Counted from the stretch's first letter, positions 5,828-30,970 are shown. The stretch: DNA of 33,276 nucleotides from Clostridia bacterium (GCA_030637025.1 DAOVVV010000027.1:1-33276); one strand, 5' to 3'. Numbers and translations are program-made. Notes: generated by a model not told the origin, from the sequence alone.

Positions 5828-7101
5828 CTAATTTACTAATGGGTAAAGAAAAAGTAATACTAATAGGTGTTTTATTACCTTCCAAAAAGAGGATTTTCGT
5901 AGAAGATTGCCTGGAAGAACTATCCAGTTTGTGTAATACTGCCGGGGCAGAGGTAGTAGATTTTTATATACAAAAAAGAAAAAAAATTGATTCTGCCTAT
6001 TTTATAGGTAAAGGGAAAATAGTTCAAATACAAAAAAAACATTTAACTAATGGAAAAATAAATACTATCGTTTTTGATGATGATCTTTCTCCCGCACAAC
6101 AAAGAAATCTGGAAGAAATTACCGGGATAAAAATTGTAGACCGTACCCGCTTGATTTTAGATATTTTTGCTAAAAGAGCTTATAGCAAAGAAGGTAAATT
6201 ACAAGTGGAATTGGCCCAATTAACTTACTTGCTTCCTCGCTTGATGGGAAAGGGTATTGCTTTATCTCAACAAGCAGGGGGGATTGGAACAAAAGGCCCG
6301 GGAGAAAAGAAATTAGAAATAGATAGAAGACGGATAAAAAGCCGCATTTTTGTTTTAAAAAAGGAAATTGAAAAAATAAAAAGTCATAGAGCACTTCAGA
6401 GGGAAAGAAGAAAACAGATTCCCATGCCAATGGTTACCTTAATTGGTTACACTAATGCCGGCAAATCTACCTTGTTTAATACTTTGGCTAAAGCATCAAT
6501 TTTTGTTGAAAATAAACTATTTGCTACTTTAGATCCAACTATCCGGCAAATAATTTTACCTGATGGTCAAAAAGCCCTTTTAGCTGATACAGTGGGATTC
6601 ATTCGTAAACTTCCACATCAATTGATAACCGCTTTTCGAGCTACCCTGGAAGAAGTATCACAAGCAGATATTCTTTTACATATTATAGACTCGACCCATA
6701 AAAACAAGCAGGAACAAATTAAAGCTACATATCAAGTATTAGAAGAATTAGGGATAGAAAACAAACAGATAGTAAATGTATATAACAAAATAGACCTTCT
6801 TCCTACAGAAATAAAGCAGAAAGAATTAAGAGGGGAAAAAGGGATTTTTGTTTCCGCTTTAAAAAGCGAAGGAATTTTGTTGCTTTTAAACACGATATCC
6901 GGTTTGCTGGAGAAGGAATTAGTAAGAGCAACCATTGTTATTCCTTCTTCTGAAAGTAGTATTATTTCTAAGATTTTCGATAAAAGCGTAGTGTTAAAGA
7001 AAAAATACAATAAAGATAAACTTACTTTAGAGGTAAAGTTGGCTAAAAAACATGCCGAAAAGTTCAAAGAATATATAGTAAAGACAGTTGAATTGGTTTA
7101 G
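5782..7101 (+). CDS. hflX: Ribosome-splitting GTPase HflX (likely start ATG 5839)
   Basis: LILDIFAKRA, EGKLQVELAQL, GPGEKKLEIDRR, GYTNAGKSTL, LFATLDPT, DTVGF, NKID. Confidence 0.97.
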   Translation: MFTCEKNINSKNNNVTNLLMGKEKVILIGVLLPSKKRIFVEDCLEELSSLCNTAGAEVVDFYIQKRKKIDSAYFIGKGKIVQIQKKHLTNGKINTIVFDDDLSPAQQRNLEEITGIKIVDRTRLILDIFAKRAYSKEGKLQVELAQLTYLLPRLMGKGIALSQQAGGIGTKGPGEKKLEIDRRRIKSRIFVLKKEIEKIKSHRALQRERRKQIPMPMVTLIGYTNAGKSTLFNTLAKASIFVENKLFATLDPTIRQIILPDGQKALLADTVGFIRKLPHQLITAFRATLEEVSQADILLHIIDSTHKNKQEQIKATYQVLEELGIENKQIVNVYNKIDLLPTEIKQKELRGEKGIFVSALKSEGILLLLNTISGLLEKELVRATIVIPSSESSIISKIFDKSVVLKKKYNKDKLTLEVKLAKKHAEKFKEYIVKTVELV

Positions 7102-7125
7102 ATTGGTTTTATTAGTTACATTGGT
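7080..7125 (+). repeat. 9-mer module (ATTGGTTTA/ATTAGTTAC) overlapping the hflX stop codon
   Basis: AAAGACAGTTGAATTGGTTTAGATTGGTTTTATTAGTTACATTGGT; related to 15133-15190 and 19373-19431. Confidence 0.85.
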
Positions 7126-7209
7126 GTGTGCCAAGATAAGTTTTTTGTAAACTATCCTGATGAAAAGTTCAGGAGACAGTAAATGTCTGTTAGAGGCATC
7201 CTCCTTATT

Positions 7210-7244
7210 CTCAGGCGGAGCGGACTATCGCTTTACTCCAGCAA
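7210..7244 (+). repeat. GC-rich dispersed repeat CTCAGGCGGAGCGGACTATCGCTTTACTCCAGCAA
   Basis: 32/35 identical to the minus-strand copy at 19277-19311 (CTCAGGTGGAGCGGACTGTCGCTTTGCTCCAGCAA). Confidence 0.85.
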
Positions 7245-7382
7245 AAAGAAAAAGACATTTTTTCCCCCTTTAAAAAAGGGAGTAGGGGGATTTAGACAAG
7301 AGGCAAATACTAAATTTTAAACACATTTTGCCTTTATTTACTTTATTAATTTTTAATTAAATAAAAACAGGGGTAATTAAAA

Positions 7383-8714
7383 TTGAAAAAGAAAGAAAAA
7401 AATATGAATTCATTACCTGTTGTAGCCGTAATTGGAAGGCCTAATGTAGGCAAATCAGCCTTATTTAATCGGTTAATAGGACAAAGAAAAGCTTTAACCT
7501 GCGACTATGCCGGTTTTAGCCGGGATAGAAATTATGCTACTTGTTCCTGGGGAGAAAAAGAATTCTCCATCATTGATACCGGAGGATGGGAAATAAATTC
7601 CAAAGAAAAAATATGGGAACTTGTTCGTTATCAGTTGGAATTAGCTATTAATGAAGCGGATTTAATCTTGTTTATGGTTGATGGAAAAGAAGGATTGAAT
7701 CCTAAAGATAAAGATCTTTTTAATTTTGTCCGAAAATGCGAAAAAAAATGCCTTTTGGTGGTAAATAAAATTGATTCGGAAAAAGAAGAAATAAATGCTT
7801 ATCAATTTTATCCACTTAGTAGTGAGTTAATTACAATTTCTTCTATACATGGTTTAAATATAAATACCTTGCTGGATAAAGTTTGTTCTCTCCTGCCTTT
7901 TTTTTCCTCTATTTCTTTGGAAAAATCAGAAGAGTTAAAAATTGCTATTGTAGGAAAACCTAATGTAGGAAAATCATCGTTGGTAAATGCTTTATTAGGA
8001 GAAGACAGAGTAATTGTGCATTCCACTCCGGGAACGACCAGGGATTCCATAGATAGCGTATTTAACAACGAAGGGGATACTTTTCGACTTATTGATACAG
8101 CAGGAATCAGAAGGAGAAAGAAAACCAAAGAGGTTTATGAAAAATTAAGTGTTATTAATGCTCGTAAAAATATTCAAAGGGCAAATATTTGTCTCTTAGT
8201 TTTAGAATCATTTACTTTTTCGGATCAGGATATAAAAATTGCCAATATGATTGAAGATGGGAAATGTGCTTGTGTTGTTATTGTAAATAAAAGTGATTTG
8301 ATAAAGAAGAGAGGAGAAGAAAAAAAGATTATTCTTCAGGAAATTAAAGAAAAATTATATTTCATGGATTATGCCCCTGTTTTGTTTACTTCCGCTAAAA
8401 ACAAGGCGGGCATAAAAAAAATGTTAAGAACAATTAAAAAAGTGCTTATTCAGTATAACAGAAATACAAGTAAAAAAGAAGTAGAAAAGTTAATTCTTTC
8501 TGCTTATTTAAATAATCTACCTGGGCTTACTAACGGAAAACGAACAAAAATATATAGAGCGCAACAGGTTAAAACAGCACCTCCTTTATTTTGCATTTGG
8601 ATAAAAGGATATCTTCCTAATGTAGCTTATAAACGTTATTTAAGAAATAAAATTAGACAAAAATTTGGTTTTATCGGAAGTCCTTTGAATTTAGTTTTTA
8701 GAAGGACAAAATAA
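7383..8714 (+). CDS. der: Ribosome biogenesis GTPase Der/EngA (likely start ATG 7404)
   Basis: Two tandem G domains (GRPNVGKS..DTGG..NKID; GKPNVGKSS..PGTTRD..DTAG..NKSD) and a C-terminal KH-like domain (RYLRNKIR..FGFIGSPL). Confidence 0.96.
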   Translation: MKKKEKNMNSLPVVAVIGRPNVGKSALFNRLIGQRKALTCDYAGFSRDRNYATCSWGEKEFSIIDTGGWEINSKEKIWELVRYQLELAINEADLILFMVDGKEGLNPKDKDLFNFVRKCEKKCLLVVNKIDSEKEEINAYQFYPLSSELITISSIHGLNINTLLDKVCSLLPFFSSISLEKSEELKIAIVGKPNVGKSSLVNALLGEDRVIVHSTPGTTRDSIDSVFNNEGDTFRLIDTAGIRRRKKTKEVYEKLSVINARKNIQRANICLLVLESFTFSDQDIKIANMIEDGKCACVVIVNKSDLIKKRGEEKKIILQEIKEKLYFMDYAPVLFTSAKNKAGIKKMLRTIKKVLIQYNRNTSKKEVEKLILSAYLNNLPGLTNGKRTKIYRAQQVKTAPPLFCIWIKGYLPNVAYKRYLRNKIRQKFGFIGSPLNLVFRRTK

Positions 8715-8765
8715 GTTAATGGCTATTTTATATAGGAGAAAAAATTAATTGTAAATAAAAATTAC

Positions 8766-8793
8766 TTGATTTTTACTGATTTTAGTGTATAAT
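8766..8793 (+). promoter_or_regulatory. Putative promoter for plsY-gpsA
   Basis: TTGATT 8766-8771, 16-nt spacer, TATAAT 8788-8793. Confidence 0.4.
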
Positions 8794-8829
8794 TAGTAAT
8801 GTAGTATGTAAAAAAATTGTCAATAACTT

Positions 8830-9456
8830 ATGGGGGAGAGCAGTATTTTCATTTATTTTATATTAGTTTTATTTTTAAGTTATGTGTTGGGTTCTCTTCC
8901 TAATGCATATTTAATGGGAAAATGGATAAAAGGAATAGATCTTCGCCAATATGGTAGTGGAAATGTAGGATTTACCAATTTGTATCGAGTAACCGGTTTT
9001 AAACCCGCAATAATTGTGCTCTTAGTAGATATATTAAAAGGTTTGATTCCGGTGCTGGTAGGGCTTTATTTATTCGCAATTTATCCTAATGCTCGAATTA
9101 TGGCAATTTTTTTTGGCATGGCTGCTATTATAGGACATAATTGGAGTATTTTTTTAAAAGGGAAAGGTGGAAAAGGGGTAGCTACTTCCACAGGCGTTTT
9201 TTTAGCTTTAATTCCAATACCGACAGTATGTGCATTTATTATTTTTGTAATAATAGTTTTTTTTACTCATTATATATCCTTAGGTTCTATTTTGGGAAGC
9301 ATTTCTTTGCTTTCGGTTGCTTATTTGAGAAAAGAGCCCCAGGAATCGATTATTTTTGCTGTTATAGTGGTTATTTTAATTATCATTAAACATCATCCTA
9401 ATATAAAGAGATTATTAAATAAAAACGAAAATAAATTTAATTTATTTAAAAAGTAA
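8830..9456 (+). CDS. plsY: Glycerol-3-phosphate acyltransferase PlsY
   Basis: YVLGSLP, GSGNVGFTN, DILKG, GHNWS, GGKGVATSTG, KHHPNIKRL. Confidence 0.96.
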   Translation: MGESSIFIYFILVLFLSYVLGSLPNAYLMGKWIKGIDLRQYGSGNVGFTNLYRVTGFKPAIIVLLVDILKGLIPVLVGLYLFAIYPNARIMAIFFGMAAIIGHNWSIFLKGKGGKGVATSTGVFLALIPIPTVCAFIIFVIIVFFTHYISLGSILGSISLLSVAYLRKEPQESIIFAVIVVILIIIKHHPNIKRLLNKNENKFNLFKK

Positions 9457-9460
9457 AAAA

Positions 9461-10492
9461 ATGAAAGAAAAAATATCTATTTTAGGTGCAGGCTCTTGGG
9501 GTATAACTTTAGCTGTTCTTTTATTTAAAAAGGGATTTGATATTACGCTGTGGGAATTTAATAAAACCCAGTCGCAATTACTTGACCAAAAACGGGTTTT
9601 GGATTTTTTACCTCAAGTAATAATCCCAAAGGAAATTTTGATAACTTCTGATTTAGAAATTGCTTGTAAGGAAGCAGAAGTTATTGTTTTTGCTGTTCCT
9701 TCTCAAGTGATGAGAGAAGTGGCTAAAAAAGTATCTAATTTCAAAAAATCCGAAAAATATATTGCAGTTAGTGCCTCAAAGGGTTTTGATTTGGAATCAC
9801 TTAAACGAATGTCTGAGGTGTTAGAAGAAGAATTAAATGCTGATTCACAAGCGGAAATTGCTGTTTTGTCCGGTCCCAGCCATGCAGAAGAAGTAAGCAA
9901 AGGGATTCCTACAGCAATAGTAGTGGCGAGTAAAAATATGACTACGGCCAAATTTTTACAAAAGGTTTTTATGACTTCGTTATTTCGAGTTTATACCAGT
10001 AAAGACCTGATAGGGGTAGAAATAGGAGGAAGCTTAAAAAACGTTGTTGCTCTGGCTTGTGGAATAAGTGACGGGTTGGGATTGGGTGATAATACTAAAG
10101 CAGCTTTAATGACGCGTGGATTGGTAGAAATAAGGCGTTTAGGAGTAAAAATGGGGGCTAACCCTTTTACTTTTTCAGGCCTTTCCGGAATGGGTGACTT
10201 AATAGTTACCTGTATGAGTAAACACAGTCGAAATCGCAATTTAGGTGAAAAAATAGGGCAGGGGAAGTCTTTAAAAACAGCTTTACAAGAGATAGTGATG
10301 GTAGCCGAAGGAGTACCCAGTACCTGTTCTGCTTATAAATTAACTAAAGAGCTTGATATTTCCTTGCCGATAACCAAAGAGGTATATCAAGTTTTATTTG
10401 AAGATAAAAACCCTAAAATAGCAATTAAAAACTTAATGGAAAGAAAACCAAAATCTGAGTTAGAAATAGAAAAAAACATAGAGAGTGAATAA
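9461..10492 (+). CDS. gpsA: NAD(P)H-dependent glycerol-3-phosphate dehydrogenase
   Basis: GAGSWG, LSGPSHAEEV, GSLKNV, GDLIVTC, SRNR, AEGV. Confidence 0.97.
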   Translation: MKEKISILGAGSWGITLAVLLFKKGFDITLWEFNKTQSQLLDQKRVLDFLPQVIIPKEILITSDLEIACKEAEVIVFAVPSQVMREVAKKVSNFKKSEKYIAVSASKGFDLESLKRMSEVLEEELNADSQAEIAVLSGPSHAEEVSKGIPTAIVVASKNMTTAKFLQKVFMTSLFRVYTSKDLIGVEIGGSLKNVVALACGISDGLGLGDNTKAALMTRGLVEIRRLGVKMGANPFTFSGLSGMGDLIVTCMSKHSRNRNLGEKIGQGKSLKTALQEIVMVAEGVPSTCSAYKLTKELDISLPITKEVYQVLFEDKNPKIAIKNLMERKPKSELEIEKNIESE

Positions 10493-10712
10493 AATGTGTG
10501 AAATTTGTAATAAAGAAAGTGAAAAATTAACTTTTTGTCCCTTATTCGGTGGAAAATTAATTTGTTTACGATGTTGTTTTTCCATTTCCACAGGAGACCC
10601 CCGGATGCTTAAAAAGATAAAATCAAAAACAAACCTGCTCAAGCATGTTGTCTTAAAAAAATGCCGAATTTGCATTGAAAAAGCCGGTACTGCAATAGAG
10701 ATTGAGAAATAA
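10485..10712 (+). CDS. Small Cys-rich hypothetical protein, possible zinc-binding
   Basis: GTG start overlapping the gpsA end; CEIC...CPLFGGKLICLRCC...CRIC (8 Cys in 75 aa). Confidence 0.7.
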   Translation: MNKMCEICNKESEKLTFCPLFGGKLICLRCCFSISTGDPRMLKKIKSKTNLLKHVVLKKCRICIEKAGTAIEIEK

Positions 10713-11327
10713 AAGCCAACCCCAAAAACTAATAAAATCAATTTATCGATCCAATTATTAAATAGTTCTGATTCCTTTTAGGGGTATCTTTGGAACCTTC
10801 CTGAGTAATTTTTTCTCCAATTTAAAGCAAAGACAAATATAGTTTATCCTAAATAGTAACAATGTTTAACTTTTTATAGGTTAGATCATTGCATACTTAA
10901 AGTAATTTATTAGATACAATACCAAAAGATATTGTATTATTTAGAATACACTTATTTTTTAATAATTTACTTTAACATGGTTTTTGTTTGAAATTATCTT
11001 GAGAAGTTAACATAAGATATATTATAGGACGTTGTTTAGGGCTTTTTCGTGGTGAAAAAATCAACCATACTTCAATACAAATATTGTAGTTATTGATAGC
11101 CGACGGTTTTAGCCGGGGCGAATTTTTTTTTTGTTGGTTTCTGTTTTTCTGTTTCTTAGCGAACATATTTGAAGTGTATACAAATTGTAGGTGCAGAATT
11201 TACTCTGCTCAAATATTGACCGGTTTAAACTCAAAGGCACAATAAAATAGATGATTATCCAGGTGTAATACCATTCTTCCTTAAAAAAAATGGCTTAAAT
11301 CGAATTGTAATTTCTTATTTCTATAAA

Positions 11328-13541: not shown

Positions 13542-13569
13542 ATTTTTTTCTTCCTGAATACTCTTATTT

Positions 13570-13614
13570 TAAAGGCAATCCCCACACCTTTATTCAGGTG
13601 TGGGGATGCCTTTA
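13570..13614. repeat. Strong intergenic hairpin (REP-like or terminator/processing site)
   Basis: TAAAGGC(A)ATCCCCACACCT-TTATTC-AGGTGTGGGGATGCCTTTA: 19-bp stem with one bulge. Confidence 0.75.
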
Positions 13615-13629
13615 TGTCAGTTGTTAAAT

Positions 13630-14127: not shown

Positions 14128-14156
14128 TTTTACTACCTCCTTTTTTTGTTGTTTTA

Positions 14157-14295
14157 AGATTTCTGCAAAATACAATATTCTGTCATTCCGCTCCGCCTAA
14201 GGCACTTGATGCGGAATCTATATGTTTTTAAATATCAATAGATTCCTGCTTTCGCAGGAATGACAAAAAGATAAAAAGCTATTTTGCAGAAGTCT
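14157..14295. mobile_element. MITE/REPIN-like unit: GTCATTCC...GGAATGAC double-hairpin core (14181-14265) inside 16-bp inverted repeats
   Basis: AGATTTCTGCAAAATA 14157-14172 vs TATTTTGCAGAAGTCT 14280-14295 (15/16); related cores at 20498-20596 and 32582-32628. Confidence 0.65.
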
Positions 14296-14346
14296 ATGTT
14301 ATTTTATAGTGTTTTTGAAGACACTATTTTTTACTTTTATAGAATT

Positions 14347-14832: not shown

Positions 14833-14859
14833 TTATTATATCCACCTTTCATTTGTCTG

Positions 14860-14948: not shown

Positions 14949-15190
14949 TTTCAAATTCCCAATTTCAAACTTCAAACTTCTTTAACTCATGACTATCTCT
15001 TTGCCATTCTCCATTTGCAATCTTTTGTCTTTTAACTGTCTTTGTTCTTTTAACCTATAACTTTCTGTTATTTAAGAACGATCTGTTATCTTTTCTTTTA
15101 ACTTTGTGCCTTTGTGCCTCTTTTTTTATCCTTTAACCAATTTAACTAATAAAACCAATGTAACCAATGCACCGCCTTTTAACCGTCTTT
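14949..15190 (-). repeat. Mosaic of repeat modules downstream of, and overlapping, the atpD stop
   Basis: In transcript order: AAAGACGGTTAA stop + 9-mers (15190-15133), AGGCACAA 8-mers + GTTAAAAGA (15119-15095), AAAGACAGTTAAAAGA (15043-15028), AAAAGATTGCAA, TTTGAA 7-mers (14980-14949). Confidence 0.8.
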
Positions 15191-15814
15191 AATTCTTTTC
15201 TCTAATCGTTTCTTTATCAGTTTAGCAATAATGAAACTTTCTCTTTCCTGTTCTTCCAATGTTTCCTGTATATAATTTGTTGTTTCTTTATAATCCGGTA
15301 TGGATATTTTTTCCAGAGCATTTACCCTATGAATGGTTTTCTTCACTTCCCGGGCAAGCCGAAGCAGTGAAAGCCGATCCTGGACATGCTGCCCAATTAA
15401 TTGTAATACTTCTTTAAACCGATTGATAACTTCATCCAGGTAAGGGCTGGTTCCTTTTAAACTGTAATAAGGAGGATTATCTTCATATTTGGTTTCTACC
15501 AATGGCAATTCTACCCCCATAATTCCTCGTTTGCGCAGAGTAATGGAAGTAGTTAAATTTACGGCTAAAGAAGCCTGTTCCGCTGATTTTCTCCCCATTT
15601 TAATTATTACCTCTTCCAGGGCAATATAAGCCTCTTTAAGTTCTTCTTCTATCTTTTTCTGAGAACTTATTGTTTTATACATTATTCCCAACAACTCAGC
15701 AATCAATATTTCCCGTTTTTGTTTTAATAATTCGTGCCCTTCCTGAACAAAAGAAAGCTCTCTTTTAAGTTTAAAAAGATTAGTTTTTGTGGGTGCTATT
15801 TTACTTTTAGCCAT
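15179..15814 (-). CDS. atpD: V/A-type ATP synthase subunit D
   Basis: PTKTNL, GHELLKQKREIL, IMGVELP, VKKTIHRVNALEKISIP, LEEQERE. Confidence 0.95.
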   Translation of the reverse strand: MAKSKIAPTKTNLFKLKRELSFVQEGHELLKQKREILIAELLGIMYKTISSQKKIEEELKEAYIALEEVIIKMGRKSAEQASLAVNLTTSITLRKRGIMGVELPLVETKYEDNPPYYSLKGTSPYLDEVINRFKEVLQLIGQHVQDRLSLLRLAREVKKTIHRVNALEKISIPDYKETTNYIQETLEEQERESFIIAKLIKKRLEKRIKDG

Positions 15815-18988: not shown

Positions 18989-19431
18989 AATCTTTTTCCC
19001 CTTCCATTCATAATTTCCCGTCTTGCAGACTAGCGGACAAACGCCATTCCCCTACTCCTCTTGCAATCTTTTATCTGTTGTTTATGGACTATACTTTCAA
19101 ACTCCCAAATTCAAATTTTCCGCCTTATCCACCAGTCTGTAAGGCGGATCTTTCTCTTTTAACTTTGTGCCTCTGTGCCTTGATGCCTTTGTGCCTGTAT
19201 TTTACATAATTAATAACTTATAAATATCTGTTTGTCTTTTGCTTTTTGTCTTTATCCGTAATCTATGGACTATCTGTTGCTGGAGCAAAGCGACAGTCCG
19301 CTCCACCTGAGGCGGATAAAGCGGATTCCTCAGTGCCTGTCTTTTTCTTTTAACTGTCTTTTCTTTTATCTTTTAACCAATCTAACTAATAAAACAAATC
19401 TAAACCAACTAACCGTTTTTTAACCGTCTTT
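18989..19431 (-). repeat. 431-bp repeat mosaic between atpE and atpA, overlapping the atpE stop
   Basis: 9-mer module 19373-19431, AAAGACAGTTAAAAGA 19346-19361, CCGCC palindromes 19297-19327 and 19119-19149, ATAGTCC modules at 19262 and 19083, AGGCACAA 8-mers 19164-19197, TTTGAA 7-mers 19095-19118. Confidence 0.85.
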
Positions 19432-20049
19432 AAAAAGCTTCCGGGCAATAGTTGCTCTGATTGAATTATCTAACCGTTTCATTCGGGCTTGAAAAGTATT
19501 ATCAAAGACAATTCTTTCATTTTGTGACTTAATAATTACCCCTAAATCATCAATCATTTCTTTAGTAGTTAAGTCTATTTTTACTTTAAATGAATATTTT
19601 TTATCCAATTCCGTTTCTACAGCGGAAATAAATTTTTTATCAACTATTTTCTTGTCCGCTTTATTAATTATAATTTTCACTTGATTTTCTTCCAGATTAA
19701 GAATCCCTTCAATAATAAATTGTTTTAACACTTCAGGATATCTTTTTGAGGTACTGAATATTTTCTTTTTTTTGTCTACACATTTTAAGACTTCATTAAT
19801 GATTTCTTCTTTTGCTTCTAACTCAATCTTTTTTATCTGAAAGGTGATTTCAGATAAAATCTTTTTTTCTAATAATTTTGATTCCACCTGAGCTTTACTA
19901 ATTATTTGTTTATAAATTTGTTCCGACTCTTTCTTCCCGTTGTTCAATCTTTGAAGAACTCTCTCTTTGGATTCGGATAAAATAGAATCTATTTCTTTTC
20001 GAGCTTCTTTTTCAATTTCAGAACAAATTAATTCCAAAGATTTATCCAT
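19420..20049 (-). CDS. atpE: V/A-type ATP synthase subunit E
   Basis: N-terminal coiled coil, LGVIIKS..ERIVFDNTFQARM; position in operon. Confidence 0.9.
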   Translation of the reverse strand: MDKSLELICSEIEKEARKEIDSILSESKERVLQRLNNGKKESEQIYKQIISKAQVESKLLEKKILSEITFQIKKIELEAKEEIINEVLKCVDKKKKIFSTSKRYPEVLKQFIIEGILNLEENQVKIIINKADKKIVDKKFISAVETELDKKYSFKVKIDLTTKEMIDDLGVIIKSQNERIVFDNTFQARMKRLDNSIRATIARKLFKDG

Positions 20050-21052: not shown

Positions 21053-21073
21053 TCTCCACCTCCGATTTTATTT

Positions 21074-23029: not shown

Positions 23030-24075
23030 TTAAGTTTCCCCTGAATTTCGGTTGGTGTTATTTTGTATATTTTACTGTAAAGCAAAGAAACTATGTTTTT
23101 CAATTCCGCTTGTTTTAAAATCAAATAAGCAAGGATAGTTCCTATACTAAAAGGATATTTTCCCAAAGAATGTTTTGCTTCTTTTATCAATGCTTCCCAT
23201 AAAATTTTTTCCATCAAGAATACAGATGATTTATCTTTCGTCTCTTTTGTAAATACATTTAATTTTTCATACGGTTTTACAGCAAAAAATTGCAACATGC
23301 TTTTTATATCACCGGTAAAAGGTTTTAAAGATTTTAATTGACCGGTTTTGTATCCGTGAGGAATTATATAATCAGTTAATTCTTTTACTGAAGAAGAAAC
23401 AGAATAATAATATTGTTTAAAGCGAACAATTGCAAGAAGATTCTCTATATCTATTTCTATCCCCACTAATTTTAAGGATATACGGCGGTCCGAAGAAGCA
23501 AGTAAATTGATGTTTTTATATAAACGCTGATAATAATCTATATCCAGAGCTGTTTCCAGATAAAAAAGACTTTTTTTCTCTTTAAATTGCTCCAGTGCTT
23601 TTAATAGCACATCCTGATATGGGGTTTTATTCAATAATAAAATTAGTTCTTCTATGCTTTCCGCCTCAAGAATTTTTGTTACCGGAATAGAATAACAAAT
23701 CTTTTCTTTAAAAATGTATTTTTCCTCATCAACTTCTTTTCGATACCAGCACCGGATAACATTTTTAAGATTTTCAATTTCCAGTTTATTAAGCATTAAA
23801 AAAACTAATTGATAAGACGCTCCCCGTAAATTTCGTAGTAATTTAAAATAGGTTTGTATATGATTTTTAAACAATTCAAATTCAATCATTCCCAAATCAG
23901 AAGTGGAACTATACATAGAAAAAATATCAGCATAATTACTTTCTCTTAAAATATCCCAAAATTCATCTACATCTTTGCTATGGATAAGAGTATCTATGGT
24001 TTCGGCCGAAAGCATAGAACCTAACATTGCCCGCACCTTAGCATTAATAAAAGCATATTTTCCTATTGAGTTCAT
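23023..24075 (-). CDS. atpC: V/A-type ATP synthase subunit C/d
   Basis: YAFINAKVRAM, EIENLKNVIR, LETALD..YY, GIEIDIENL, ILAYLILKQAELKN. Confidence 0.92.
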   Translation of the reverse strand: MNSIGKYAFINAKVRAMLGSMLSAETIDTLIHSKDVDEFWDILRESNYADIFSMYSSTSDLGMIEFELFKNHIQTYFKLLRNLRGASYQLVFLMLNKLEIENLKNVIRCWYRKEVDEEKYIFKEKICYSIPVTKILEAESIEELILLLNKTPYQDVLLKALEQFKEKKSLFYLETALDIDYYQRLYKNINLLASSDRRISLKLVGIEIDIENLLAIVRFKQYYYSVSSSVKELTDYIIPHGYKTGQLKSLKPFTGDIKSMLQFFAVKPYEKLNVFTKETKDKSSVFLMEKILWEALIKEAKHSLGKYPFSIGTILAYLILKQAELKNIVSLLYSKIYKITPTEIQGKLKC

Positions 24076-24120
24076 TGTTTAATACTACCCTTTTGTATAT
24101 TTTGTGCCATCTGCGTTCTC

Positions 24121-24444
24121 TTAAGATTCTACTTTAACTATTTTTTCAAAAACCTCACTGGCTGTTTCTTCTGTTTCCTTCATTTTCGCTGTTTTAAATC
24201 CGACAAAATAAGCTGCTGATTTTTTAATTTCTTCGTCTGTTTTTTTCCTGGCCTGTTCTTGTGCGTCTTTGATCATTTCCTTCGCCTTTAAAACAGCTTT
24301 TTCTTTTGTTTCCTTTAATAAAGTCTCATTCTGTCTTTTTGCTTCATATACCATCTTTTCTGCTTGTTCACGTGCATCTTCAATACTTTTTCCGGAATTA
24401 TTCTCTACTTCCAGTATTTTATCAATAACCTCTTTCAATTTCAT
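24121..24444 (-). CDS. V/A-type ATP synthase peripheral stalk subunit G/H
   Basis: 107-aa charged coiled coil (VIDKILEVE...IEDAREQAE) at the head of the operon; AAGGAG RBS. Confidence 0.8.
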   Translation of the reverse strand: MKLKEVIDKILEVENNSGKSIEDAREQAEKMVYEAKRQNETLLKETKEKAVLKAKEMIKDAQEQARKKTDEEIKKSAAYFVGFKTAKMKETEETASEVFEKIVKVES

Positions 24445-24449
24445 CTCCT

Positions 24450-25706
24450 TTATTTTTTATATAAATTTATTTCCTCTTTATTTTTGTAATAAAAATAAAA
24501 AATACTGATATAACTAATAATGGAAATAAATAATAGGGCTATTGAAACGATGATATCAAGCATTTGAAACGATATTGACCAGTTTGATAAACCAATAGTT
24601 CCAAATGTCGAGTAAAAAAATGACGAAATATAAATCGGTATTGCCAAAAACGCGGTGCAAATCATAATCATGGTTAGATATTTTAAAAGAAAAATTTTAA
24701 TAAAAACTATTGTTTTTTTTATTGATTTTAAAAAATCCAATTTTTCTGTAGTAATAATAAACGGCGTCATCAAAATAATAACGCTCAGTAGAGGCATTAA
24801 AAAAGATGAAGATACTTTTTTAATGCTGTCTAATAATTTAAATGATACCGGGGGTATTCCCGTAAGTAAATATTGTATTGTTTGTCCGAATTCTGAAAGA
24901 GAAAAAATGTAAGTAATTAAGACTAATAATACTTTGAAAACAAATAATTTCTTAAAAACCGAAAATGAATCACTTAATACTTCTTTCAAAGAATATATCT
25001 TGTTTTCAAAAATCCCATTCAAACTTAACAGAATTGCTGCTTCTAAGATTGAAAAAAGCAATAAGCCGGAAAAACTTAATACAATCATTATCCCTGTTGT
25101 GGTTAATAAAAGAATAGTATTACTTTTTATCTTAATATTCAGAATGACTAAAACAATAAAAAAAAGAATTGCAAATAAAGAATACTTCATTTGTCTGCTG
25201 AAAGAATCTACATCAATTTTATTTTTAACGTCTACGAATTTGAGTATTTTTTTATGAACAATTTTATATATTAATAAATAACCGATAATACCAAGAAAAA
25301 ACAGAAAATTCCCTGCTATAAAACCTGAAAAACCATAATCTAAATATAATGGTGCTTTAATTAAAGCACCTAATGATTTTACCATGACTGATAGGACATT
25401 TATACTTTGAGAAGTTCTAAATGCAGAATTTAAAACACACGGATATTTAAGATAATAATAAATCCAAACCGTGATTTTATAAAAACAATTTGCCAGAATA
25501 AAAATGAAAGGCAGAACAAACAACCATGTATTATTTTTTAAGATCAACAGGGATTTTTTAAAAATATCAAAGATTTCATTAAAATTCTTAAAACCGGTAA
25601 AGGAAGTGCCGGGAAGCTTTTTAGCCATTTTTTGATGGATAAAATAAGCTATTAGATAGATTAAAAGAGCTATTCCCACTATGTTCATAAATAATACTTC
25701 TTTCAT
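24450..25706 (-). CDS. Hypothetical polytopic membrane protein
   Basis: 418-aa ORF with many hydrophobic segments; no family motif recognised. Confidence 0.8.
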   Translation of the reverse strand: MKEVLFMNIVGIALLIYLIAYFIHQKMAKKLPGTSFTGFKNFNEIFDIFKKSLLILKNNTWLFVLPFIFILANCFYKITVWIYYYLKYPCVLNSAFRTSQSINVLSVMVKSLGALIKAPLYLDYGFSGFIAGNFLFFLGIIGYLLIYKIVHKKILKFVDVKNKIDVDSFSRQMKYSLFAILFFIVLVILNIKIKSNTILLLTTTGIMIVLSFSGLLLFSILEAAILLSLNGIFENKIYSLKEVLSDSFSVFKKLFVFKVLLVLITYIFSLSEFGQTIQYLLTGIPPVSFKLLDSIKKVSSSFLMPLLSVIILMTPFIITTEKLDFLKSIKKTIVFIKIFLLKYLTMIMICTAFLAIPIYISSFFYSTFGTIGLSNWSISFQMLDIIVSIALLFISIISYISIFYFYYKNKEEINLYKK

Positions 25707-25807
25707 TTTCTTTTTTTCCTTTAAATAGTTTGCATTTTTTTTGTCTTTTAGTTTAAGTTTCTATTTCTTGTTTTTTTGAATTCATAATTCCTATGTCTGT
25801 TGTCTTT

Positions 25808-25834
25808 ATTCTGTTATCTATGGACTATGGACTA
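25808..25834 (-). repeat. ATAGTCC heptamer module downstream of mutL
   Basis: Minus strand TAGTCCATAGTCCATAGATAACAGAA, same as the module after smpB. Confidence 0.8.
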
Positions 25835-25854
25835 AATCTGTTTTTGTCTCTTGT

Positions 25855-27681
25855 CTATATCCTCTTAAACTTCCTATCTAATTCTTCTTCGGTGATTTCT
25901 ATTATTATAGGTCGGCCATGTGGACAGGTAAACGGGTTTTTTGTTCTTTTTAAATCTTCCACTAATTTTTCTATTTCCCTGCTTCCTAATGAATCTTTTG
26001 CTCTTATTGCCGTATGGCAGGCGGTTCTTATAATACGGTCGGTTATTTCATCGCTAAGTTCGATTTCTTTTTTAACGGTTCCTAATTCTAATAAGCGATC
26101 TAAAACATCCTGAATAATCTGTTTATTATTTTTATCTCCCAAAAGTGCCGGTATTCCTTTTACTTTAAAATCATTAGCCCCGAATTCTTCGATTTGAAAC
26201 CCTATTTTATTGAGATAAGTAACGTTTTTTTTTACTACTACACTTTGGCTGGGAGAAAGTTCAATAGTAAAAGGAATAAGTAATCCCTGAATAGAAACGG
26301 CCTCTTTGCTAATTTCTTCTTTAAACTGTTCGTAAACTATGCGCTCAGAAGCAGCATGCTGATCAATTACCAGTAAATTTCTTCCTTTTTGTGCCAGAAT
26401 ATATTTATTGCTCATCTGCGCCAGGGGTTGTATCTGAATATCAATAAGTAATCCTTCTTTTTCTTCTTTTGAATTTGAATAAACAAATTTCTTAGGTTGG
26501 GATAAATCCTGTTTTGATAAATTTTGTTTGTTAATATTCGCAAAAAAATTCTTCCGGTCAACTGAAGAACGAAATGTTTTATTCGGTTTAGTCATATAAT
26601 CAGCAATACATTCTTTTATTCCCCTGTCCCGTTGATTAAACTGGTTGGGTAACGGCTGATATTTAACATTGGCGGAGAATTCCCCCCGTTGCAATGATTT
26701 TTTTATTTCTTCGGCTAATAAAGAATGTATCGCCTGCTCATTAATAAAACGGATTTCCGATTTGGCAGGATGAACATTTACATCAATCAGGGATGGTTCT
26801 ATTCGGATAAACAGAAATATCGCCGGATACCTTTTAGGAGGAATTATATTTAAATAAGCACTATAGATAGCATGGCTGAGTAATCTTGACCCGATAAAGC
26901 GATTATTTACAAAAATTAATTGTCGGTTTCGATTAGAAAAAGTACTGGAAGGAGGAGAAATAAAACCTCTGACGGATAAAAAATTATTAGAAAAACTTAA
27001 ACTTTTTAGTCTGCTAAAAAACTGATTTCCGTATAATGCCACCAATCGATCAGCAGGGTTTTTAATTCGAGGAACATTGATTAATTCCTTTCCTTCACTG
27101 ATTAGTTTAAAAGCAACCTCATAAAAAGATAAAGCCATACTTTCTACTATTTTACTGATATGGTCTATTTCGGTAGTATTAGACTTTAAAAACTTTCTTC
27201 TTGCCGGAGTATTAAAAAACAATTCTTCTACATCAATTTGCGTCCCTTCCGGACAACCCGCTTCTTTTATTGCTTCTTCCTTTCCTCCGACGGAAATAAT
27301 TTGATTTCCGGCTAAAGAACCCTTTGTTTTAGTAAATAATTTAATTTTAGAAACAGCGGCAATACTGGGCACAGCTTCACCTCTAAACCCCAGAGAAGTT
27401 ATTTTTTCCAAATCTTCGGCCCGGGTAATTTTACTGGTTGCATAACGATGAAAAACCAGGGGTAAATCCTGCCTGCTTATTCCTTCTCCGTTATCAGTAA
27501 CCCTGATTAAACCTTTACCTCCACCCTTTATTTCTACCAGTATTTGAGTGGCTCCGGCATCCAGGGAATTTTCCATTAATTCTTTAACTACCGAAGCCGG
27601 ACGCGATACTATTTCTCCGGCAGCAATTTTGTTTACAACCTCAGTAGATAAACTTTTTATTTTATTAGGCATTATTTTCAC
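25855..27681 (-). CDS. mutL: DNA mismatch repair endonuclease MutL (likely start ATG 27672)
   Basis: NKIAAGE, VKELMENSLDA, GFRGEA, DVNVHPAKSE; endonuclease motifs DQHAASERIVYE, ACH, CPHGRP. Confidence 0.97.
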   Translation of the reverse strand: MKIMPNKIKSLSTEVVNKIAAGEIVSRPASVVKELMENSLDAGATQILVEIKGGGKGLIRVTDNGEGISRQDLPLVFHRYATSKITRAEDLEKITSLGFRGEAVPSIAAVSKIKLFTKTKGSLAGNQIISVGGKEEAIKEAGCPEGTQIDVEELFFNTPARRKFLKSNTTEIDHISKIVESMALSFYEVAFKLISEGKELINVPRIKNPADRLVALYGNQFFSRLKSLSFSNNFLSVRGFISPPSSTFSNRNRQLIFVNNRFIGSRLLSHAIYSAYLNIIPPKRYPAIFLFIRIEPSLIDVNVHPAKSEIRFINEQAIHSLLAEEIKKSLQRGEFSANVKYQPLPNQFNQRDRGIKECIADYMTKPNKTFRSSVDRKNFFANINKQNLSKQDLSQPKKFVYSNSKEEKEGLLIDIQIQPLAQMSNKYILAQKGRNLLVIDQHAASERIVYEQFKEEISKEAVSIQGLLIPFTIELSPSQSVVVKKNVTYLNKIGFQIEEFGANDFKVKGIPALLGDKNNKQIIQDVLDRLLELGTVKKEIELSDEITDRIIRTACHTAIRAKDSLGSREIEKLVEDLKRTKNPFTCPHGRPIIIEITEEELDRKFKRI

Positions 27682-30346
27682 TTTCTTTTTTAAACTTTAA
27701 TGTTCTTTTCTTTAATTCCTGTAATTTATTTAAAGCTTCCAGGGGAGTCAAGCCATCTATAGGTAATTGCTTAATTTCTTCCATCAGGAGATTTTGTTGT
27801 TGGGTAAAGAGATTTAATTGTTTATTATTTGAATCTTCCGTGTCGGTATTTAGTCGTAAAACATTTCCTTCTTTGTAAACATTCTTTTCCAATTCTACTA
27901 AAATGTCTTTTGCTCTGTTGGTTACCGAAGCAGGTAATCCGGCTAATTTTGCTACATGAATACCATAACTTTTATCGGCACTCCCTTCTATTATTTTACG
28001 CAGGAAAATTATTTCATCGTTCCATTCCCTCACAGCAATATTGTAATTTTTTACTCCTTTTAATATTCGGGCTAATTCAGTTAATTCAAAATAATGCGTA
28101 GCAAAAAGGGTTCTTGGACCTTGATTAGTATCTTTATCCTTTTTACTGTGCAGGTATTCCACACTGGCCCAGGCAATACTCACTCCGTCAAAAGTGGAAG
28201 TCCCTCTCCCTACTTCATCTAAAATTAATAAACTACGGGAAGTAGCATTATTAAGAATATTTGCTGTTTCGTTCATTTCCACCATAAATGTCGATTCTCC
28301 CTCAGCAAGATTATCTGCAGCTCCGATACGGGTGAAAATTCTATCCACTATCCCTATTTCTCCTTCTCTGGCCGGAATAAAACTACCGATTTGAGCCATA
28401 AGGGTAATCAAAGCTACCTGCCTGAGATAAGTTGATTTTCCGGCCATATTAGGTCCGGTTATAATCAAAATCTGGTTCTCGTTGCCGTCTATCTGTATAT
28501 CGTTGGGAATAAAACCCATCCCTACCAGACTTTTTTCTACTACCGGATGTCTTCCGTCCCGTATAACAAACCGGTAATCATTAGTTACTTCCGGCCGGCT
28601 ATAATTATTGATTACCGCAGCTTCGGATAAACTTAAAATAGCGTCCAGAGTCGCAACAGTTAAGGATACTTCCTGAATAGCTGTAGTTTTTCTGATTACT
28701 TTTTCCTTGATTTTTTGAAATACCTCGTATTCTAAGTTAAAAATCTTTTCTTCCGCTCCTAAAATAAAAGATTCCTGTTCTTTCAATTCCGGGGTAATGA
28801 ATCTCTCAGCGTTAGTTAAGGTTTGTTTACGAATGTAGTTTTCAGGTACATTAGCCAGATTTGCCCTGGTTATTTCAATATAATATCCAAAAACACCGGT
28901 ATAGCCTATCTTTAAGGAATTAATTCCGGTACGTTTTTTTTCTTTTTTTTCTAAATTGAGTATCCATCCTTTACTTTCCGAACGAGCCAGGTTAATTTGG
29001 TCTAATTCAGAGTGATATTCCTTTTTAATTAATCCCCCTTCCCTCAGAGATACAGGGGGTTCATCCACTATTGATTTTTCAATCAGTCCATAAACTTCTT
29101 TTAAGTCGGATAATTGTTTTGTCAAATTACGCAGGAAATTACAATGAACTTTATCCATCTTTTCTTTAATCAAAGGAATAACTTTTAACGAATTTTTCAA
29201 GGCTACCAAATCCCGGGCATTGGCTGTTCCACAATTTAGCCGGCTGATTAATCTTTCCAAGTCACTTATTTTTTTTAATTCATCCTGTAGGTTCTTACGC
29301 AAAACAGTATCGAGAAAAAATTCAGCATTTGCTTTTTGTCTTGCCTGGATTTTTTCTATATCCAGCAATGGTTCAAGTATCCATCGCCTGAGAGTTCTTG
29401 TTCCCATTGGGGTTAAGGTATAATCCAGTACTTCAAGCAAGCTGTTTTTTCTGGTTTTAGTGGATAAACCGGTCACCAGTTCCAGATTGTCCTGAGTAGA
29501 TTTATCCAGAACCATAAAATTTTCCGTAGAATACCACTGCAGGTGATTTATATGAGCAAGAAAAGTTTTTTGTGTATCTCCCAGATAAGCAACAATTGCT
29601 CCCGAAGAAAAAATAGCCTCTTCTTTATCTTCTAAGTTAAATCCTTTAAGTGAGGCGACTTTAAACTGATTTGTTAACTTTTGATAAATAGATGCTTTTT
29701 CATATCGCCAGTCCTCAATAAAATTAATGGAAATATTCCACCTTCCTAAAAAATCCAGAAAATCTTTTTTTTCTTTCATAAAACAGGGTAAAATACATTC
29801 GGCCGGTTGAAAACGGGAAATCTCATTGCTTAATTTATCCAGAATATGTTTGCCGCCTATTTGTGTAGTTAAAAATTCCCCGGTAGAAATGTCGGTAAAG
29901 GATAAACCAATTTTACTGTTGGCATTTAAGTCGGAAATTTTGACCCCTTCGAATATTTTGGGATCAATATAAATAGCGGATAAAAAATTATTGTTTTCCT
30001 TAGAAAGAAGATGATCTTCTACAATCGTCCCGGGAGTAATTAAACGAACAACCTCTCTTTTTACAATTCCTTTACCGGCTCCGGGAGATTCCATTTGTTC
30101 ACAAACAGCTACTTTTTGTCCCTGCTTAATCAGCCGGGCAATATAATTGGTAGCAGAATGATGAGGAACACCGCACATAGGAATTTTGTGACGGGAAGTT
30201 AAAGTAATTTCTAAAAGGCGGGAAGCAACCTGAGCATCTTCTCCGAACATTTCATAAAAATCGCCTAAACGAAAAAAAAGGATAGCCCCGGGATAATTTT
30301 TTTTTATTCGTTGATATTGCTGCATCAAAGGAGTAATTTTATTCAT
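27665..30346 (-). CDS. mutS: DNA mismatch repair protein MutS
   Basis: TPLMQQY, FFRLGDFYEMF, TGPNMAGKSTYLRQ, STFMVEM, DEVGRGTST, FATHY, SYGIHVAKLAG. Confidence 0.98.
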   Translation of the reverse strand: MNKITPLMQQYQRIKKNYPGAILFFRLGDFYEMFGEDAQVASRLLEITLTSRHKIPMCGVPHHSATNYIARLIKQGQKVAVCEQMESPGAGKGIVKREVVRLITPGTIVEDHLLSKENNNFLSAIYIDPKIFEGVKISDLNANSKIGLSFTDISTGEFLTTQIGGKHILDKLSNEISRFQPAECILPCFMKEKKDFLDFLGRWNISINFIEDWRYEKASIYQKLTNQFKVASLKGFNLEDKEEAIFSSGAIVAYLGDTQKTFLAHINHLQWYSTENFMVLDKSTQDNLELVTGLSTKTRKNSLLEVLDYTLTPMGTRTLRRWILEPLLDIEKIQARQKANAEFFLDTVLRKNLQDELKKISDLERLISRLNCGTANARDLVALKNSLKVIPLIKEKMDKVHCNFLRNLTKQLSDLKEVYGLIEKSIVDEPPVSLREGGLIKKEYHSELDQINLARSESKGWILNLEKKEKKRTGINSLKIGYTGVFGYYIEITRANLANVPENYIRKQTLTNAERFITPELKEQESFILGAEEKIFNLEYEVFQKIKEKVIRKTTAIQEVSLTVATLDAILSLSEAAVINNYSRPEVTNDYRFVIRDGRHPVVEKSLVGMGFIPNDIQIDGNENQILIITGPNMAGKSTYLRQVALITLMAQIGSFIPAREGEIGIVDRIFTRIGAADNLAEGESTFMVEMNETANILNNATSRSLLILDEVGRGTSTFDGVSIAWASVEYLHSKKDKDTNQGPRTLFATHYFELTELARILKGVKNYNIAVREWNDEIIFLRKIIEGSADKSYGIHVAKLAGLPASVTNRAKDILVELEKNVYKEGNVLRLNTDTEDSNNKQLNLFTQQQNLLMEEIKQLPIDGLTPLEALNKLQELKKRTLKFKKESENNA

Positions 30347-30355
30347 TACTTATCA

Positions 30356-30646
30356 TCACTCCTCCGGTTCTTCATCATCTTTTTTTAATTCAGCAAATCG
30401 AACAGATAAAGCCTCAATTTTCCTGTCTTTTTCTTTGAGTATGCTGATTAATTTCCATTGCTTTAAAAGTCCCAGGATAGTAGCAAAGAGACCTCCAAAT
30501 AAAACCGAAATCAAAATGACCACCATTAAAGAAAGAGGAGGGCTTACCCATCCAAATAATTTAATTTCAACCGGTGAAATATTTTGCATAGTAAAAACAA
30601 CCAAAATTAAAGAAAATAATAAAATAACAATTAATTTTAACTGCAT
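30356..30646 (-). CDS. LapA-domain (lipopolysaccharide assembly protein A / DUF1049) membrane protein
   Basis: TM helix, FTMQN..V.IKLFGW...L, second TM helix, C-terminal coiled coil; AGGAGG RBS. Confidence 0.85.
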   Translation of the reverse strand: MQLKLIVILLFSLILVVFTMQNISPVEIKLFGWVSPPLSLMVVILISVLFGGLFATILGLLKQWKLISILKEKDRKIEALSVRFAELKKDDEEPEE

Positions 30647-30684
30647 CCCTGCCTCCTTTTTTTCCCTTATATTTTCAATAAAGT

Positions 30685-30714
30685 ATTATAATCATATTTC
30701 AACACTTTTTTCAA
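30685..30714 (-). promoter_or_regulatory. Putative sigma70 promoter for the LapA-mutS-mutL unit
   Basis: TTGAAA (30714-30709), 18-nt spacer, TATAAT (30690-30685). Confidence 0.5.
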
Positions 30715-30796
30715 GATATTTTTCTTGCTCTGCCAATCTGTAAGGTGAATAAAACGGGTCATTTTTATATACAGGCTGTATCATGGCCCCCTTTTT

Positions 30797-30847
30797 TGGT
30801 AGCCGCAGGCTTTTAGCCTGCATAAAATTTAAAGGTTGCGGCTACCA
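30797..30847. repeat. GTAG-type REP doublet (REPIN-like)
   Basis: TGGTAGCCGCA 30797-30807 / TGCGGCTACCA 30837-30847 perfect inverted pair; internal hairpin GCAGGCT-TTT-AGCCTGC. Confidence 0.8.
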
Positions 30848-30925
30848 CATAAAAATCTGAATTATGCCACAGGAGGATATTTTTTCTTTTAACTTTATGA
30901 CTCTGTCTTTCTGCCTATATTTTTC

Positions 30926-30970
30926 TTTTATCTGGTATCTGTGGACTATGGACTGTCGACTATGGACTGT
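30926..30970 (-). repeat. ATAGTCC/ACAGTCC heptamer module overlapping the miaB stop
   Basis: Minus strand ACAGTCC ATAGTCG ACAGTCC ATAGTCC ACAGATACCAGATAAAAG; encodes QSIVDSP*. Confidence 0.85.

Follow-up and report, generated by a model that had tools for sequence, protein, structure and literature searches.

Modular elements dispersed over intergenic spacers, with sub-modules in a fixed order and inner modules in variable number, are represented by the BIME/REP mosaics of enterobacteria and the BOX elements of pneumococci, which lie mostly at gene 3' ends or between the genes of an operon. Palindromes or hairpins form the basis of REP, BIME and BOX, and REPs are associated with a RAYT transposase. 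Short tandem repeats make up the cyanobacterial STRR class, reportedly described by Mazel in 1990. TAACTGA intergenic direct repeats are known from marine Beggiatoaceae, cyanobacteria and Bacteroidetes, and in forward orientation their stops in all frames restrict overlap with the upstream gene to a few codons (MacGregor, 2015; PMC4679880). In this work we analyzed a stretch of 33,276 nucleotides (DAOVVV010000027.1; hereafter the window) from an uncultured cold-seep bacterium, in which short tandem repeat modules supply the last residues and the stop codons of four genes, namely hflX, atpD, atpE and miaB.

These modules are probably lineage-specific, dispersed, non-palindromic short tandem repeats of the STRR or intergenic-heptamer kind, with the overlaps of stop codons as by-products of stop-rich units lying beside slippery A-runs. 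They fill the 3' flanks of genes in sense orientation. Such behaviour is real but has largely been described already for bacterial intergenic repeats, and is not that of a new enzyme system. What differs here is the ordered composite of 11-mer and 9-mer units, its tight anchoring at the stop codon and not at the next start, and the retention of a unit at the hflX stop in four species while the arrays downstream were exchanged.

The window is the entire contig C72 of a 77-contig, 2.36 Mb assembly (G+C 33.5%; 97.8% complete), for which a crude custom caller gave 1875 genes (87% coding). In the genome collection, the phylum-level group of this organism comprises the genomes of four species only, all of a single genus, and the next nearest relatives merely belong to the same domain.

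Results

Repeat modules at four stop codons

The genes atpD and atpE end in the same sequence, AAAGACGGTTAA (...ATT AAA GAC GGT TAA in atpD and ...TTT AAA GAC GGT TAA in atpE), read as K-D-G-stop, and after both stops comes ATT(G/T)GTTTTATTAGTTA(A/G)ATTGG (positions in Table 1). Homology between the two copies sets in 9-10 nt upstream of the stop, so that the final three codons and the stop are themselves repeat sequence. The 3' end of hflX is AAAGACAGTTGAATTGGTTTAG (7080-7101), followed by ATTGGTTTTATTAGTTACATTGG with the same core as the arrays of atpD and atpE, and that of miaB, CAG TCC ATA GTC GAC AGT CCA TAG (QSIVDSP-stop), lies within an array of heptamers. All these features had been reported in a first-pass annotation of the window and were recovered exactly where it had placed them; Pfam confirmed the identities of the four genes, its profiles stopping 3-11 residues short of the repeat-derived tails.

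The modules of atpD, atpE and hflX are copies of a composite of about 60 nt, formed by 1-6 A units (11-mer AAAAGACRGTT), 2-5 B units (9/10-mer xATTGGTTx) and an A-rich tail (AAAGGATAAAAGA), with further A units often behind this tail. A profile made from the three window copies gave 68 matches in the assembly at E ≤ 10, and 49 composites were counted when these were defined as an A unit with at least two B units within the next 60 nt. Copies mostly differed by about 10-30%, as estimated by eye from the profile matches, and varied by whole units. The A unit came first in 33 of the 35 spacers holding both units. The other spacer families (TAGTCCATAG heptamers, GGCACAAAG, TTTGAA-type and GTTAAAAGA) showed no wider fixed order, and a larger fixed cassette with the A-B-C-F order common to the atpD and atpE spacers was rejected, as the order was mixed across the genome (A/heptamer 6:6; A/C 10:7).

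Intergenic arrays found by TRF amounted to 1223 and included the heptamer (CCATAGT), the 11-mer (AAAAGACRGTT), the 9/10-mer (AAACCAAT-type) and a GGCAC-type; by family, 112 A, 86 B and 53 heptamer arrays were present in the assembly. Per base, the frequency of the 9-mers of these families was 20-120 times higher in intergenic than in coding sequence. The sequence AAAGACRGTTRA occurred 72 times on both strands together, and 63 of these copies were intergenic (58 in spacers downstream of a same-strand gene and 5 in other spacers). The remainder consisted of seven intragenic copies in sense and none in antisense orientation, plus the two that lie over a stop codon, which are those of atpD and atpE. 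The recurrence of AAAGACRGTTRA at gene ends is not due to chance.

Every unit carries stop codons (TAA/TGA in A, TAG/TGA/TAA in B, TAG in the heptamer) and recurs with a period of 11, 9-10 or 7 nt, respectively. As none of the lengths 11, 10 and 7 nt is divisible by three, successive copies set stops in all three frames, and thus any frame entering an array is closed within a few codons.

Orientation and distance to stop codons

In co-directional spacers, 59 A arrays were in sense and 5 in antisense orientation (binomial P = 4.5e-13), which bears out the co-orientation with transcription claimed in the first-pass annotation; five further A arrays were found in divergent spacers, where there is no upstream stop. 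The tie to stop codons, also claimed there, was upheld: 28 of the 64 A arrays behind a sense gene began at most 15 nt past the stop, whereas 2000 random placements in the same spacers averaged 4.6 and never exceeded 12. This uniform null overstates the effect because present spacers largely consist of the repeats themselves, and a comparison with compact spacers was therefore substituted for it. The other 36 of these 64 arrays lay away from stops. Within the same 15 nt we found 8 of 36 heptamer arrays (2.1 expected) and 2 of 27 GGCACAAAG arrays (1.6 expected).

Of the composites, 44 were located behind a same-strand gene, and the start of 28 of these fell between -21 and +13 nt relative to the stop, although their spacers measured 130-760 nt; for composites coming first in their spacer, by our own reading of the table, the figures were 28 of 37 in that range and 18 of 37 at most 4 nt past the stop. 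In 14 genes the stop (TAA in 10, TAG in 2 and TGA in 2) was followed by one to five A only and then by GACRGTK.

Co-directional spacers free of repeats (n = 833) had a median length of 76 nt, whereas those bearing repeats (n = 303) had a median of 319 nt, the unshared sequence in them amounting to 26 nt next to the stop and 49 nt next to the following start (medians). The sum of both unshared parts, 75 nt, is about the size of a repeat-free spacer, indicating that the repeats were inserted into short spacers; as the end close to the next gene is needed for the ribosome-binding site or the promoter, inserted repeats would be pushed towards the stop.

Genes with a repeat-derived stop or tail

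When every gene end was compared by BLAST with all spacers, 154 of 1826 genes had their stop in sequence common to at least three spacers, mostly through A-rich low-complexity matches. Family-specific cases were picked by eye among the matches listed, which gave an approximate figure of 12 repeat-supplied stops among 1825 genes, seven from A/B units and five from heptamers (Table 1). Observed overlaps between gene and repeat spanned 3-8 codons, and the same tails recurred on unrelated genes (QSIVDSP-stop twice, QSIVHSQ-stop once, KTVELV-stop twice and KDG-stop twice). A few further gene ends overlap hairpin-type repeats.

Other dispersed repeats were seen at gene ends. A strictly sense repeat, AAAATATGTTTCTCTCTGGACGCATAATTTTACCCT..CGGGCACGCAAAAACAAGCTAAAAATAAGC, whose 9-mers were found 26-40 times in sense and 0-1 times in antisense, stands behind some stops (C11 3-1208, C35 68627-69214, C30 154-1443, C8 64778-66223 and C73 ~11726), several copies being located behind a multi-copy gene family that ends in FNGTVVVAK-stop. 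A hairpin-type repeat, ..AGAGTTTTTGTCAGC..GCTGACAAAAACTCTGTAGTCGAATTGATCC, begins at or just before several stops (C65 48063-49298, C39 56144-58219, C7 53029-53961 and C31 80574-82376), and it lends two unrelated genes the same tail, FNET-stop. A second, distantly related V-ATPase D gene of the genome (C53:50992-51659, L016; 30% identical) also has an ATTGGTT-type B array within about 30 nt downstream. A CCCCC..GGGGGATTT hairpin module with the look of a terminator lies at 7262-7300 of the window; it recurs at three loci of the relatives (L038, L049 and L062) and often has an A unit directly behind it.

Orthologous sites in related genomes

Each of the three sister genomes showed an excess of the A unit (33, 34 and 48 matches vs. 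8, 6 and 5 for the reversed control). The hflX orthologues of the four species code for proteins 78-80% identical that agree up to ...YIV/YII and then diverge into the tails KTVELV, NS, KKDS and KKNG, each followed by the stop. In all four the stop falls within a variant of the A unit (AAAGACAGTTGA..., AAACAGTTAG, AAGGACAGTTGA and AAAACGGTTAA), and the arrays behind it are made of B units in two species and of heptamers in the other two. The V-ATPase operon was found in only one of the relatives (G003), where KDG-stop is kept in both atpD and atpE; there the atpE stop is followed by heptamers and no B units, and the atpD spacer is about 170 nt shorter than in the window.

For miaB no close orthologue was present in the three relatives, the best match being 31-36% identical. 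Among homologues retrieved from the protein database, one 87% identical ends in ...GGKIKEKDPPY, without QSIVDSP, and one 68% identical in ...GEVPRVKS, while the window protein ends in ...GKIKNKKQSIVDSP. The conserved MiaB protein ends at ...SL.G and the tail beyond is lineage-specific. As proposed in the first-pass annotation, the four genes do take their tails and stop codons from the modules: the HflX tails differ among the four species, and QSIVDSP is lacking in the closer MiaB homologue.

For a comparison of orthologous sites, 15 loci were taken from the relatives; 14 had a match in the window's genome, and one of them (44% identity) was excluded as a likely paralogue. In nine pairs the relative had an A unit at most 20 nt from the stop. 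The window's genome kept it in four of them and lacked a clear A unit in five, one of which may hold a decayed copy. In four of these five the stop was at the same place or within about one codon of it, with the module beginning after the stop, and some of the sites lacking the A unit were short ordinary spacers with a ribosome-binding site. Arrays change by whole units: at one orthologous junction, two A units were present in one species and six in another. The module junctions are old and were inherited across the four species.

Insertions of 7 and 14 bases were seen in the atpD spacer in contigs of a related strain. Contigs from four DNA runs break at the arrays and most of their joints are cross-repeat artefacts, so that only the unit-size insertions of one run were usable; no empty allele of atpD, atpE or miaB was seen in them. 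Outside the lineage, the 17-mer at the A-B junction was found in 101 stretches among the genomes of 185,579 species, and several were present only in one unclassified metagenome-assembled genome (5 loci, 6 matches), the others being, by our own arithmetic, single matches at chance level.

RNA structure, terminators and candidate enzymes

Predicted RNA folds of four window modules showed no excess stability over shuffled sequences (z = +0.89, -0.19, -0.25 and -0.63); with self-pairing no greater than in shuffles, no paired ends are evident. Regarding features of the MITE type, the 5' junction is visible in filled/empty pairs, and the 3' junction is unplaceable as the arrays grade into other repeats, no target duplication being seen with the 3' junction in this state. 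Hairpin-plus-T-run terminators, searched for with a simple rule, were scarce (44 in sense and 16 in antisense in 1013 co-directional spacers, and one in each of 3 of 40 convergent spacers), and downstream of atpD and atpE the gene strand had none. A gene for Rho was found on contig C40.

The first-pass annotation had called for a search for a nuclease, transposase or reverse transcriptase gene flanked by the same modules, and no such gene was found among those checked. A Pfam scan of all open reading frames of the window found none of these enzymes, with four frames having no Pfam match. In the whole assembly, of the completeness given above, no match was obtained for RVT_1 (PF00078), which does match in control genomes, so that repeats made by a retroelement find no support in the assembled sequence. 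The three Y1-transposase (PF01797) genes had no A/B or heptamer units in their 160-nt flanks, the nearest composite being 2.5 kb off; an identity with REP/BIME elements and their RAYT was rejected for this reason and for the lack of a hairpin in the four window modules. Matches to GIY-YIG (PF01541) numbered five, and at the four whose flanks were read (the fifth overlaps no called gene) none was flanked by A/B modules. Three small GIY-YIG genes have other hairpin repeats in their flanks, of the GGAATGACA/TTCGCAGGAATG-type at two and of the CATTGCGAG-type at the third, and no A/B or heptamer units, and a link to Ssn-type GIY-YIG nucleases was dismissed, at the flanks read, on the basis of these other repeats.

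Features of the window and gene orientation

The coordinates of the modules and genes are collected in Table 1. A heptamer array of the miaB family lies behind smpB, beyond the range covered by the first-pass finding, and the Rfam scan of the window yielded only the tmRNA, with no family at the repeat modules.

Genes of the + strand (1760-10492) meet genes of the - strand (from 11328) at a convergent spacer of 835 nt (10493-11327), within which, at about 11 kb, the GC skew changes sign. This layout is as would be expected at a replication terminus, and none of the repeat families was found in this convergent spacer. Gene orientation is very uniform in the assembly, 1489 of 1549 genes (96%) being aligned with their 30-kb neighbourhood; among 1539 spacers, 46 separate convergent and 54 divergent gene pairs. 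No array adjoins any of the 60 minority-strand genes.

Table 1. Positions of repeat modules, genes with repeat-derived stops and neighbouring features (window coordinates unless a contig is named).
Feature	Position	Strand	Remarks
A unit (AAAGACAGTTGA) in last hflX codons	7080..7091	+	Frame read hides its TGA as stop
B array (ATTGGTT-type 9/10-mers)	7092..7125	+	First TAG, 7099-7101, is the hflX stop; tail KTVELV-stop
A unit AAAGACGGTTAA	15179..15190	-	K-D-G-stop of V-ATPase subunit D (15190-15179)
Degenerate second A unit (AAGGCGGTGC) and B array of four 9-mers past atpD stop	15135..15178	-
Remaining atpD spacer mosaic	14950..15134	-	A-rich tail, GGCACAAAG x2 (15102-15118), A unit (15033-15043), AAAGACAAAAGA, GTTTGAA-type units (14950-14977)
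Two A units	19410..19431	-	First, AAAGACGGTTAA, is K-D-G-stop of V-ATPase subunit E (19431-19420)
Post-atpE B array, AAAGATAAAAGA and further A unit	19351..19409	-	B array 19375-19399; A unit 19351-19361
Remaining atpE-atpA spacer	19096..19350	-	Hairpin-type repeats, TAGTCCATAG, GGCAYMRAG x4 (19163-19195), TTTGAA-type units (19096-19116)
Heptamer array CAGTCC ATAGTCG ACAGTCC ATAGTCC A	30942..30970	-	Codes QSIVDSP and TAG stop of miaB
HflX	5782-7101	+	Pfam; stop from A/B units
V-type ATPase subunit D (atpD)	15179-15814	-	Pfam; stop from A/B units
V-type ATPase subunit E (atpE)	19420-20049	-	Pfam; stop from A/B units
MiaB	30946-32373	-	Pfam; stop from heptamers
Gene on C8	C8 63430-64245		Stop from A/B units
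Gene on C67	C67 8762-9700		Stop from A/B units; also ends ...KTVELV-stop
Gene on C35	C35 54117-55382		Stop from A/B units
Gene on C47	C47 19348-20988		Stop from A/B units
Gene on C31	C31 2441-2968		Stop from heptamers; also QSIVDSP-stop
Gene on C26	C26 43311-43949		Stop from heptamers; QSIVHSQ-stop
Gene on C7	C7 4125-4967		Stop from heptamers
Gene on C42	C42 3515-4327		Stop from heptamers
tmRNA	240-592	-	Rfam, 220 bits; adjoins smpB
Heptamer array, miaB-array family, TAGTCCATAG-type	867..895	-	Begins 15 nt past smpB stop
smpB	911-1420	-

Discussion

Proposed origin of the modules and of the stop overlaps

We consider it probable that the modules are dispersed, stop-rich tandem repeats. The 5' end of the composite, an A-run, typically merges with A-rich sequence just past the stop, and most modules begin right behind the stop that belongs to the gene itself. 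For about a dozen genes, the original stop may have been displaced or removed by a small alteration of the junction, likely an indel of one nucleotide within a run of A or T or a shifted unit boundary. Translation would then enter the module for 2-8 codons and end there, and this read-in would account for unrelated proteins ending alike in KDG, KTVELV or QSIVDSP. Indels at the junction may create the overlaps, and the spread of copies could be due to recombination or template switching at the A-rich tracts behind stops, without any enzyme of their own. Insertion into short ancestral spacers, in which only the stop-proximal part is free of ribosome-binding or promoter signals, would explain part of the adjacency.

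The junctions themselves are runs of A or T. At atpD and atpE an out-of-frame TAA is found exactly where most other loci stop (TAA-AGACGG), and at miaB GATAAAAAATAAAAAACAG contains two out-of-frame TAAs just upstream of the array. At hflX, one relative (G001) reads AAA AAG GAC AGT TGA and the window GTA AAG ACA GTT GAA TTG GTT TAG, one frame apart.

Several observations weigh against this explanation. Even if about 40 free nucleotides behind the stop are allowed for, the finding of 18 of 37 first-in-spacer composites at most 4 nt from it is far in excess (binomial P of ~9e-8 at p = 0.125), and the compact-spacer effect leaves over some real attraction to the stop or A-run, or some positional selection. 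Four species have kept the A unit at the hflX stop amid replacement of the remaining spacer, a persistence that simple neutral junk does not predict; likewise, a unit consensus kept across species requires either continuing copying or selection. As no ancestral module-free allele of atpD, atpE or hflX was present in the three relatives, we infer the junction indels from reading frames and A/T runs. Moreover, four of the approximately 12 repeat-supplied stops lie in a single 33-kb contig, which is unaccounted for, the window having been chosen for them.

Alternative explanations

Some of these observations would be met if the composite were a selected RNA (or DNA) signal required directly behind the stop, with the C-terminal overlaps as tolerated side effects, a reading that we hold to be unlikely. 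Such a signal would offer an unstructured landing site, with GGUU in each of about six units repeated every 9-11 nt, to a multi-domain or ring-shaped RNA-binding protein, for which ribosomal protein S1, a cold-shock protein, a CsrA-like protein, Hfq and Rho are candidates. It would serve in ending, processing or stabilising the transcript, or act on ribosomes that have terminated. The sense orientation (59:5) and the 18 of 37 first-in-spacer copies at most 4 nt from the stop are consistent with it, but the composite is present at only about 50 of 1825 genes, divergent spacers hold five arrays, and 36 of 64 begin away from stops. Comparison among species is similarly divided: the A unit is kept at the hflX stop in all four despite the turnover downstream and they have the unit consensus in common, whereas five of the nine orthologous sites are without a clear A unit in the window's genome and the number of units varies freely (2 vs. 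6 at one junction). As for a possible reader, the modules are no more structured than shuffles, hairpin-plus-T-run terminators are scarce and missing from the gene strand after atpD and atpE, and the genome encodes Rho; however, Rho loading sites are not G-rich and C-poor but rather the reverse, and the sense strand of the modules is G-rich and C-poor. For the TAACTGA repeats, MacGregor (PMC4679880) proposed binding by S1, Csp or CsrA.

A more specific version is that the A-then-B composite might be a new kind of stop-anchored RNA signal of about 60 nt, read by a hexameric or multi-domain protein, which would end or process transcripts or hand over ribosomes; to this we give a small chance. 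If true, such a signal would operate in a candidate phylum of four species with very few hairpin terminators, and the protein tails would be the visible cost of a signal flush with the stop.

We consider an enzyme-driven process improbable, in which modules would be placed at stops or immediately ahead of them, along transcription, by a nuclease, transposase or reverse transcriptase from another locus. Filled and empty orthologous sites do exist, with the module starting right past an unchanged stop, but no paired ends are evident in the modules and no target duplication was seen, their 3' junctions being unplaceable. All three stops serve as junctions (TAA 10, TAG 2, TGA 2) and the adjacency to stops exceeds the compact-spacer model; against this, modules are also found away from stops and in divergent spacers. 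The copy of atpE and one on contig C14 are about 90% alike by eye, suggesting fairly recent copying, whereas most copies differ by about 10-30%, again by eye, and vary by whole units, and junctions are common to species at about 80% protein identity. Regarding the enzyme itself, RVT_1 had no match in the assembly, and the Y1 genes and those GIY-YIG genes whose flanks were read have other repeats or none.

This is the reading of the first-pass annotation, in which a candidate undescribed system deposits modules at or before stops, co-oriented with transcription, and rewrites C-termini. The modules are indeed co-oriented, anchored at stops and tail-encoding, but a depositing system finds no support. 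The junctions were inherited, as seen from the A-unit variant at hflX in four species and from the KDG-stop kept in G003; in four filled/empty comparisons the stop of the relative is at the same place or within about one codon, and the module comes after it; 36 of 64 arrays are off stops, five are in divergent spacers and only about 12 of 1825 stops are supplied by repeats. Insertion into short spacers would account for much of the closeness to stops (medians of 76 vs. 26 + 49 nt). Nor would the behaviour be undescribed, since tandem repeats with stops in all frames that lie over upstream stops are already in print (PMC4679880).

That the orientation bias merely reflects replication, through strand-polar DNA motifs or products of strand-specific slippage with only apparent gene co-orientation, is hardly to be believed: every sense array does run with the local gene majority (1489 of 1549 genes) and every antisense array against it, which makes the directions of transcription and replication inseparable in this assembly, and the GC skew does change sign where the window's genes converge, but near confinement to spacers and starts at stops are not predicted for a replication-polar motif, the polar motifs KOPS and Chi being mostly inside genes.

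Taking the modules, then, as dispersed tandem repeats of stop-rich units, they indicate that non-palindromic repeats flush with stops can occasionally alter the C-terminal amino acids of essential proteins (V-ATPase D and E, HflX, MiaB), and do so harmlessly because they carry stops in every frame. For annotation, the odd tails KDG, KTVELV and QSIVDSP shared by unrelated proteins are to be taken as repeat-derived and not as functional motifs. The leading unit held at the stop across species amid turnover, if functional, would point to a signal that resembles a terminator or is tied to the ribosome, in a lineage of which little is known.

Comparison with known repeat systems

In contrast with REP, BIME and BOX, the A/B and heptamer modules have no hairpin and are unlinked to Y1 genes. 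The heptameric G-rich repeats of Xanthomonas and Nostoc (Rehm et al., 2015; PMC4692102) resemble them in several respects: they are over-represented in non-coding DNA between co-directional genes, vary in copy number and were not found with mobile elements. Those repeats form G-quadruplexes and favour four units, whereas the units of the window have neither G-tracts nor structure and make an ordered two-unit composite.

The TAACTGA repeats share many features with the modules (PMC4679880). In them, too, a single short unit is repeated directly and in tandem at numerous spacers, with a strong orientation with respect to the neighbouring genes and without a predicted fold; their forward orientation sets stops in all three frames, and in 13-14 sets the repeat lies over the upstream gene's stop codon. 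Indels of unit size (7 nt) and filled vs. empty spacers distinguish sister strains, and there is no evident mobilising mechanism or enzyme in either case. The difference lies in position and composition: the TAACTGA repeats of the Beggiatoaceae genome are mainly located one to a few nucleotides upstream of the next start, whereas the modules described here are anchored at the upstream stop, and their units, unrelated in sequence, are 11-mers and 9/10-mers in fixed order that stand beside several other families.

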